Origin: an unidentified eubacterium SCB49
GTDB taxonomy: Bacteria > Bacteroidota > Bacteroidia > Flavobacteriales > Flavobacteriaceae
Direction of reading: 5' to 3'
Length of the DNA stretch: 32,000 nucleotides
Assembly (NCBI GenBank): GCA_000170815.1
Contig: ABCO01000010.1
Span: 81,652 to 113,651 of the forward strand
Shown here: piece after piece, positions 24,246 to 24,316 of the stretch
Numbering within the stretch: position 1 is the stretch's first letter
How the letters are laid out: every line of letters begins with the position of its first letter
The notes under the pieces: model-generated
Database searches by the model: none
What the model was told of the DNA's origin: nothing
Seen by the model: the letters and a program-made list of their open reading frames with translations, nothing else
Translations under genes and position numbers: made by a program

Positions 24246-24316
24246 GCCCTTCGACAAGCTCAGGGTGACAGTTAATTAGTTGGAACATTACAAGCCTTGT
24301 CAGGCTGAGCTTTTCG
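24246..24316. repeat. Solo palindromic element of the same arm family as array B (head-to-head arms, 29-nt spacer)
   Basis: GCCCTTCGACAAGCTCAGGGTGAC (24246-24269) is identical to the array B right arm. GTCAGGCTGAGCTTTTCG (24299-24316) is its imperfect inverted partner. Confidence 0.85.

Follow-up and report, generated by a model that had tools for sequence, protein, structure and literature searches.

A description of tagged hairpin repeats in bacteria appeared in 2013 and named no partner enzyme; in 2025 the repeats were tied to the Ssn nucleases, which act on single-stranded DNA. In the former study, CGTC- and TGTC-tagged REPs were found to occur as heterodimers and reportedly have no transposase, and the Rickettsia palindromic elements RPE-4 and RPE-6 were classed among the CGTC REPs (Di Nocera et al., PMC3733652). 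According to the latter, CGTCA-tagged hairpins (NTS) flank the gene ssnA, and the Ssn nucleases bind the NTS only as single-stranded DNA and on one strand only, cutting a few nucleotides upstream (PMC11893778).

The window analysed here, that is, the whole stretch of 32,000 nucleotides, contains two arrays (A and B) and one solitary pair (the solo) of arms which seem to belong with these repeats. Sequence comparison and analogy with the Ssn enzymes make it probable, in our judgement, that the repeat is a variant of the CGTC/TGTC-tagged REP superfamily, of Ssn type, whose arms in related bacteria bracket GIY-YIG genes of 95-105 aa, and that the copies in this genome have been orphaned.

Results and Discussion

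The solo pair and the arrays of the window

The solo pair is located in the intergenic region 24204-24335, between two co-directional genes, both of which lie on the minus strand. An earlier note on this DNA had named these neighbours as a phospho-sugar mutase and an ABC exporter, and both gene identities were confirmed. The features referred to throughout are the following:

2683-3511: array A, 5.4 units of 154 bp; unit of a GTC arm (plus strand), 71 nt and a CAT arm (minus strand), with a GCA loop
4313-4977: array B, 3.2 units of 185 bp; unit of a TGC arm (plus strand), 43 nt and a CCC arm (minus strand)
4900-4918: truncated arm of array B
22377-24203, minus strand: ABC exporter gene, one neighbour of the solo pair
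24206-24325 (approximate): inserted block with the solo pair, delimited by alignment of the orthologous spacer
24246-24270, minus strand: solo arm 1, reading T-GTCA-CCC-TGAGC-TT-GTCGAA-GGG-C on that strand
24271-24297: spacer of the solo pair, 27 nt between the T residues and 29 nt between the GTCA motifs, with the tags facing inward
24298-24321, plus strand: solo arm 2, reading T-GTCA-GGC-TGAGC-TT-TTCGTA-ATG
24336-26054, minus strand: phosphoglucomutase/phosphomannomutase gene, the other neighbour of the solo pair

On re-reading of the window, the sequences and coordinates previously given for the solo held, save for the end of the second arm: the block does start at 24299 and reads GTCA GGC TGAGC TT TTCGTA, but it comprises 20 nt and ends at 24318 rather than at 24316. 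Solo arm 1, which over 24246-24269 of the minus strand is GTCACCCTGAGCTTGTCGAAGGGC, is an intact module of the CCC type, possessing the tag, a CCC/GGG stem, the T-A pair, the G.A and A.G mismatches, the G-C pair and a 5-nt loop. Its proposed identity with the right arm of array B was confirmed at three such arms (4442-4461, 4627-4646 and 4812-4831), and the same sequence constitutes the upstream arm of the nuclease cassette of genome G030 as well as arms in an Eremiobacterota MAG. Meanwhile, solo arm 2 is a decayed arm of the GGC type, in which GTCGAA has become TTCGTA (two mismatches) and the 3' triplet ATG is unpaired with GGC. The intact GGC arm forms the downstream end of the cassettes of G030 and G310, and pairs with a CCC arm at C19:55671-55730 of this genome (G000). 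Judged by these matches, the CCC and GGC arms of the solo are the two ends of one type of nuclease cassette, that of G030 and G310. The earlier view of the solo as the head-to-head register of the arrangement present in arrays A and B is likewise supported. The solo was also considered as an intrinsic terminator, which was ruled out because the coding strand at the solo revealed no terminator-like site.

Abundance and distribution of the arm family

The arms were searched with a strict pattern, GTCA-N3-TGAGC-N2-3-GTCGAA, and with a relaxed one that allowed one mismatch per block. The strict pattern has 18 matches in the window, as compared with none in 100 shuffles, and 130 matches (72 forward, 58 reverse) in the 3.21-Mb genome of 34% GC, where approximately 0.004 are expected by an estimate from base composition. 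The reversed pattern gave no match across all 41 genomes searched. The relaxed search led to the identification of about 190 copies (196 in the element counts) at 51 loci of this genome, comprising 29 singletons, 5 pairs and 17 arrays or clusters, the largest with 23 copies. The claim of the earlier note that the arms of array A, array B and the solo make up one dispersed and oriented superfamily is borne out by these 51 loci. The pattern is thus neither limited to three loci nor as frequent in shuffled sequence, the two outcomes which the note had named as refuting it.

Of the 196 copies, 11 lie within ORFs of 120 aa or more, although these make up 87% of the genome. The genes adjoining the copies exhibit no strong orientation bias; relative to the background, copies are slightly commoner between convergent genes and rarer between divergent ones.

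Several hairpin copies lie in frame within housekeeping ORFs and resemble in this respect the Rickettsia palindromic elements. One of them, KKPALRQTQGDS, occupies the linker of an E2 acyltransferase (C19:66071-66100; L133:2144-2172). The other intragenic copies (C24:344491-344619, C25:76180-76204, C22:306134-306159, C25:91407-91432 and C23:252746-252771) reside in genes coding for a HemN/HemW-like protein, which harbours three tandem copies (...DVSLSAVED...), RNase R, MetRS, GluRS (in antisense) and an Eco57I-like restriction-modification (RM) protein.

Structure of the arms

Each arm is composed of the T-GTCA tag, three covarying base pairs, a T-A pair, the tandem G.A/A.G mismatches, G-C(+C-G), a loop of 3-6 nt and a short tail (C/A-A-A/T). 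The triplet that follows GTCA is complementary to the triplet that follows GTCGAA in the same arm in 140 of the 148 exact cores of this genome and in 141 of 168 matches elsewhere, the latter coming from 118 stretches of other genomes and phyla; by chance, about 5% would be expected in either set. Since the triplet pairs with its counterpart in its own arm, each arm is its own hairpin and a self-contained module. More than ten stem types were recognised, among them GTC/GAC, CAC/GTG, CAT/ATG, CCC/GGG, TGC/GCA and GAT/ATC. Among 98 distinct 26-mers, the three variable pairs exhibit 58, 56 and 21 double changes, and the covariation score amounts to 0.433, as against 0.106 in shuffles (none of 500 reaches 0.433) and 0.03-0.10 with slid partners. 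The T-A pair, too, is replaced by C-G in the CGAGC...CGAG variants. Each position of T-G-T-C-A is 89-100% conserved (163 + 30 copies), those columns that are fixed by the search pattern being uninformative on conservation. The tag reads TGTC in about 90% of the copies here, and the variants CGTC, AGTC and GGTC were seen elsewhere, in other genomes. The A that follows the tag pairs with a T in 39 of the 98 distinct sequences.

Calculated with nearest-neighbour DNA energies, the fold of a single arm has approximately -2 kcal/mol with z near 0, while the arm-to-arm fold has -12 kcal/mol in the solo (z = -2.1) and -22.6 kcal/mol in an A unit. Since the arm-to-arm fold comes out as the more stable, it is covariation and not energy that supports the local hairpin.

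Along the genome, neighbouring arms stand tail-to-tail in 52 cases, head-to-head in 42 and head-to-tail in 43. The earlier note had held that the two arms of a pair differ at the triplet, which is so in 92 of the 94 adjacent inverted pairs genome-wide, these having different stems. It had also regarded the triplet as a preserved mismatch bubble, and this part has to be abandoned: the triplet represents the outer 3 bp of the arm's own hairpin and covaries with the 3' triplet, and the "bubble" appears only when two unlike arms are paired together. A search of Rfam with gathering and E-value thresholds gave no meaningful match. A hammerhead or other ribozyme was also considered for CUGA...GAA and rejected, the core positions being a misfit.

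Lineage-specific insertion and amplification

In five congeners (G008, G013, G019, G001 and G007) only about 10-25 nt separate the start of the exporter gene from the stop of the mutase gene, and alignment identifies the solo pair as an insertion missing from all five. The orthologous site contains one CCC arm in G010, and in G009 (C16, L177; the orthologue of window positions 24204-24335) a different arm, GTCATCCTGAGCGCAGTCGAAGGC, of TCC type with a GCA loop. The second, decayed GGC arm is present in this genome only, which therefore has two arms at the site, and is found in neither G010 nor G009. The differing arm of G009 suggests that the site was used more than once, or that one member of the family has replaced another.

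At the site orthologous to array A, no hairpin was found in G008, G009 or G010; at that of array B, G010 has a single decayed CCC arm, and G008 and G009 have none. Both arrays are lineage-specific tandem amplifications with a unit identity of 92%. When the array units were searched for remnants of a nuclease gene, only the arms matched the cassette of G258. Arrays A and B were also considered as CRISPR-like or type III toxin-antitoxin arrays; both interpretations fail, since what would be the "spacers" is itself conserved in the 154- and 185-bp units.

Other repeats were noted in the vicinity and elsewhere. According to Tandem Repeats Finder, GTGAGT-type/ACTCACC heptad or 14-mer repeats, unrelated in sequence to the hairpin arms, lie on opposite strands at window positions 2577-2659 and 6366-6447 and bound a repeat-rich island. 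On another contig (C14:52873-53110), seven GTC arms follow one another in direct orientation with a 37-nt period, forming a head-to-tail mini-array that departs from the inverted pairs of which the units of arrays A and B consist. This contig begins within a hairpin pair, so the repeats probably break the assembly.

GIY-YIG nuclease genes bracketed by the arms in other genomes

G030 belongs to the same order but to a different family, and its GIY-YIG gene, coding for 97 aa, is located between GTCACCCTGAGCTTGTCGAAGGGC on the plus strand and GTCAGGCTGAGCTTGTCGAAGCC on the minus strand, that is, between a CCC(+) and a GGC(-) arm, the two arm types of the solo. The gene of G310, 82% identical to that of G030, is accompanied by CCC and GGC arms in the same order relative to the gene; a CCC(-)/GGC(+) head-to-head dimer is found beside it as well, with a spacer of about 31 nt which is similar to that of the solo in length and unrelated to it in sequence. 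In a set of 300 Bacteroidota genomes, arms of the family lie at most some 300 nt away from 16 of the 30 closest homologues, mostly to either side of the gene. G258, which belongs to the same family as this genome, has a GTC arm and then a CAT-like arm upstream of its GIY-YIG gene and a CAC arm downstream; by sequence type, the former two are those of array A. Six of the seven intact genes in the near relatives G009, G010, G015 and G039 are likewise flanked by arms. Further afield, a variant arm, GTCATCCTGAGCGCAGCGAAGGA, was detected beside a 93-aa GIY-YIG gene of Hymenobacter glaciei, and arms identical to GTCACCCTGAGCTTGTCGAAGGGC surround a UPF0213-like homologue (41% identical) in the Eremiobacterota MAG (L082:2190-2640). 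The latter cassette, from another phylum, lies in a visibly G+C-rich stretch, and the 3' end of its gene runs into the hairpin.

Strong nuclease matches (E<1e-25) were obtained only in five genomes, all of them among the seven that have at least 10 motifs; the 29 motif-free genomes gave none. These counts are an indication and overstate the association, the 41 relatives searched being kin and not independent. In G008, which has 10 motifs, no nuclease match was found.

The GIY-YIG domain PF01541 is the sole domain both of the 97-aa protein of G030 and of a 104-aa protein encoded on contig C19 of this genome, and the other homologues of the cassette nuclease are mostly 95-121 aa in length. The protein of the G030 type scores best against UPF0213 structures (1ZG2, 8.8e-16; 1YWL, 6e-11). 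The protein of Hymenobacter is about equally near to the G030 and C19 types (36% and 34% identity). NCBIfam offered no name for the family of the small nucleases. The cassette nucleases are not demonstrably members of the cd10448 Ssn clade. Going one step further, the TGAGC...(T)CGAA hairpins might be distinct, phylum-spanning single-stranded DNA sites that are served by UPF0213/YhbQ-like GIY-YIG enzymes and not by the cd10448 Ssn clade, a proposal which we regard as tentative and would not yet favour. If it were true, an uncharacterised protein family would gain a substrate and the Ssn toolbox would be enlarged, and horizontal spread of the cassette would account for the identical arm that this flavobacterium, of 34% GC, shares with an Eremiobacterota MAG of high GC content.

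GIY-YIG genes of this genome and the probably orphaned copies

The assembly, the richest in arms of all the genomes searched, yielded no intact nuclease of the cassette type flanked by arms of the family. The only homologue of the cassette nucleases here is a UPF0213-like GIY-YIG frame located between ssb and recQ (C22:295043-295345, L191), 47% identical to them, which has no hairpins nearby and reads ATA where its homologues start with ATG. Weaker matches akin to this frame in G010 and G012 contain stop codons, and the frame may be a decaying chromosomal copy.

The 104-aa gene (C19:65428-65742, within the cassette C19:65392-65775, L133:1465-1848) is Ssn-like of the cd10448 kind by appearance. 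It is bracketed by hairpins of another sort, ATTCCTGC-N4-GCAGGAAT-C, of which the genome contains two copies only, both at this gene; its orthologues from G009, G021 and G023 are also flanked by hairpins of this sort. A comparison of the protein with the PDB returned no match. The bracketing hairpins resemble the dRS3 repeats of Neisseria, and the gene itself lies between the E2 gene and a 206-aa ORF that gave no identifying match.

At C19:55671-55730 a CCC(+) and a GGC(-) arm are separated by about 20 nt (9 nt counting stems), a pair which, from its arm types, is a cassette devoid of its gene. The arms of this genome exceed in number any possible partner gene and, with no intact flanked nuclease of the matching type in the assembly, look orphaned. 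The solo and arrays A and B are most likely orphaned copies, recently inserted or amplified, that have no dedicated role for the mutase or the exporter.

Other GIY-YIG ORFs were observed next to tRNA-like sequences. Four tandem 360-bp units (C18:83944-85288, L126-L130) each comprise a tRNA-like 3' end, read by eye and translated as ...RGSSPLLATK, followed by an 87-aa GIY-YIG ORF, and two more such ORFs, one of them with an internal stop, adjoin tRNA-like genes, again recognised by eye, at C25:575053-575740.

If the Ssn enzymes are taken as a model, replication, repair, transformation or conjugation would allow the tagged strand to fold while single-stranded, and the hairpin would be bound by the nuclease, which would make its cut a few nucleotides away on the 5' side. 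Together with the gene, such a hairpin could then behave as a selfish, IS-like cassette, from which gene-less arms might spread and subsequently be amplified locally by recombination or slippage. The suggestion of the earlier note that the arms look like single-strand hairpin substrates of an enzyme is supported, with cleavage predicted by homology.

Alternative explanations

The repeats could instead act at the RNA level, the transcribed hairpins of single arms or the long one formed from arm to arm serving as stabilisers, processing sites or attenuators, both at the mutase and exporter genes and elsewhere, independently of any nuclease. The near-exclusive intergenic position of the copies, their slight excess between convergent and deficit between divergent genes, the place of the solo between two co-directional genes and the fold of its dimer (about -12 kcal/mol, z = -2.1) would all fit such a role, and many REPs have been argued to act as RNA (Di Nocera et al., PMC3733652). 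However, neither an Rfam match nor a terminator-like site on the coding strand at the solo is there to back it, and the two orientations are about equally frequent (72 forward versus 58 reverse). Five congeners keep both genes with the site empty, and in G009 the site has another type of arm. Since the invariant tag and the association with nuclease genes would also be left unexplained, an RNA-level role seems improbable.

Slightly less probable still is that the repeats are inert DNA, relics which are kept by descent together with slippage or unequal crossing-over and which nothing in the cell recognises. The decay of solo arm 2, the lack of an intact flanked nuclease in the assembly and the nature of the arrays, lineage-specific tandem amplifications with 92% unit identity, are all consistent with it. 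Yet compensatory changes in the stem and an invariant tag have been kept across phyla, which speaks for recognition being of importance, if only where the element is spreading, and the genome still has two GIY-YIG genes that are candidates for acting in trans. It should be borne in mind that this interpretation overlaps with the one preferred here, orphaned copies of a nuclease-associated hairpin, and does not exclude it.

The partner proposed in the earlier note, an HUH enzyme of the REP-associated tyrosine transposase (RAYT) type that recognises the 5' tetranucleotide and mobilises the arms as REPIN-like pairs, can hardly be upheld: a conserved 5' tetranucleotide with a hairpin, inverted pairs and clusters are indeed present, and some relatives do have RAYT-type genes, but this 99.9%-complete genome has no Y1_Tnp (PF01797) match, the domain does not track the motif counts of the 41 relatives (G000, G010 and G008 have motifs without Y1_Tnp, G024 and G036 Y1_Tnp without the motif), the tag is TGTC(A) and not GTAG, CGTC-type repeats flank no RAYT gene according to Di Nocera et al. 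(PMC3733652), and the genes actually bracketed encode GIY-YIG nucleases.

Implications for annotation and further work

The arms account for many spurious micro-ORFs, for odd peptide inserts such as VSLSAVED and ALRQTQGD and for some of the breaks in draft assemblies. A corrected motif, T/C-GTCA followed by N3, Y-GAGC, the loop, G(T)CGA-R and N3', would bring to light a large hidden share of such repeats, in Bacteroidota as well as in other phyla. For mutagenesis, the covariation of the outer stem and the invariance of the G.A core indicate which positions to choose. If the bracketed UPF0213-like proteins do cut the hairpins, more programmable nucleases of single-stranded DNA would become available.

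Comparison with known systems

With the GTAG REPs and REPINs, which are associated with RAYTs, the repeats described here share a tetranucleotide tag joined to a hairpin, inverted pairs, clusters and the logic of a hairpin formed on a single strand. They differ in having another tag, no Y1_Tnp and a GIY-YIG gene rather than one for an HUH enzyme.

RPE-4 and RPE-6 have in common with them in-frame copies in housekeeping genes, represented here by the E2 acyltransferase linker and the MetRS, RNase R and HemN-like genes. In this genome, however, approximately 5% of the copies lie in ORFs, and the arms, of about 25 nt each, are much shorter.

The likeness to the CGTC REPs (CGTC-1 to CGTC-4; Di Nocera, De Gregorio and Rocco, BMC Genomics 2013, PMC3733652) extends to the unpaired terminal tag, which may read TGTC, the short tails, stems of 8-9 bp, head-to-head and tail-to-tail dimers that mostly consist of unlike arms, occurrence in Bacteroidetes, insertions inside genes and the lack of a RAYT partner. 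The published CGTC REPs have perfect stems that start from A-T pairs and loops of 4-5 nt, whereas the stem here contains G.A mismatches and the loop comprises 3-6 nt, a departure from the perfect 8-9-bp stem of those families. Long tandem arrays, which are called rare in PMC3733652, occur here with composite units of 154-185 bp.

The Ssn-related motifs (SRM; NTS/dRS3 in Neisseria), which go with GIY-YIG nucleases of the SsnA type (Chenal et al., Nat Commun 2025, PMC11893778), have in common with the repeats described here the oriented (Y)GTCA tag on the 5' side, a hairpin that corresponds to about 8 bp, the short tail, hundreds of mostly intergenic copies and a spread over many phyla, as well as hairpin-gene-hairpin cassettes with a single-domain GIY-YIG gene of about 95-105 aa. 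Of the traits of SRMs, the oriented, non-palindromic GTCA tag 5' of the hairpin is present in this genome; the small GIY-YIG gene flanked by repeats, often on both sides, is absent from it and present in its relatives and in Eremiobacterota. The published SRM pattern, HGTCWYN(0-2)YYVSBRHN(0-5)WNVSBRGN(0-2)RNCYNB, overlapped none of the 196 copies and had one match in the genome, as compared with one to three in Markov controls, while a canonical NTS used as control did match. It would therefore rate this genome as repeat-free in spite of some 190 copies. The NTS is a fixed perfect palindrome, whereas the hairpins here combine the invariant tandem G.A/A.G mismatches with variable outer pairs. 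In addition, the repeats of this genome occur without a flanked partner gene, and the nucleases bracketed by their counterparts elsewhere score best against structures of UPF0213.
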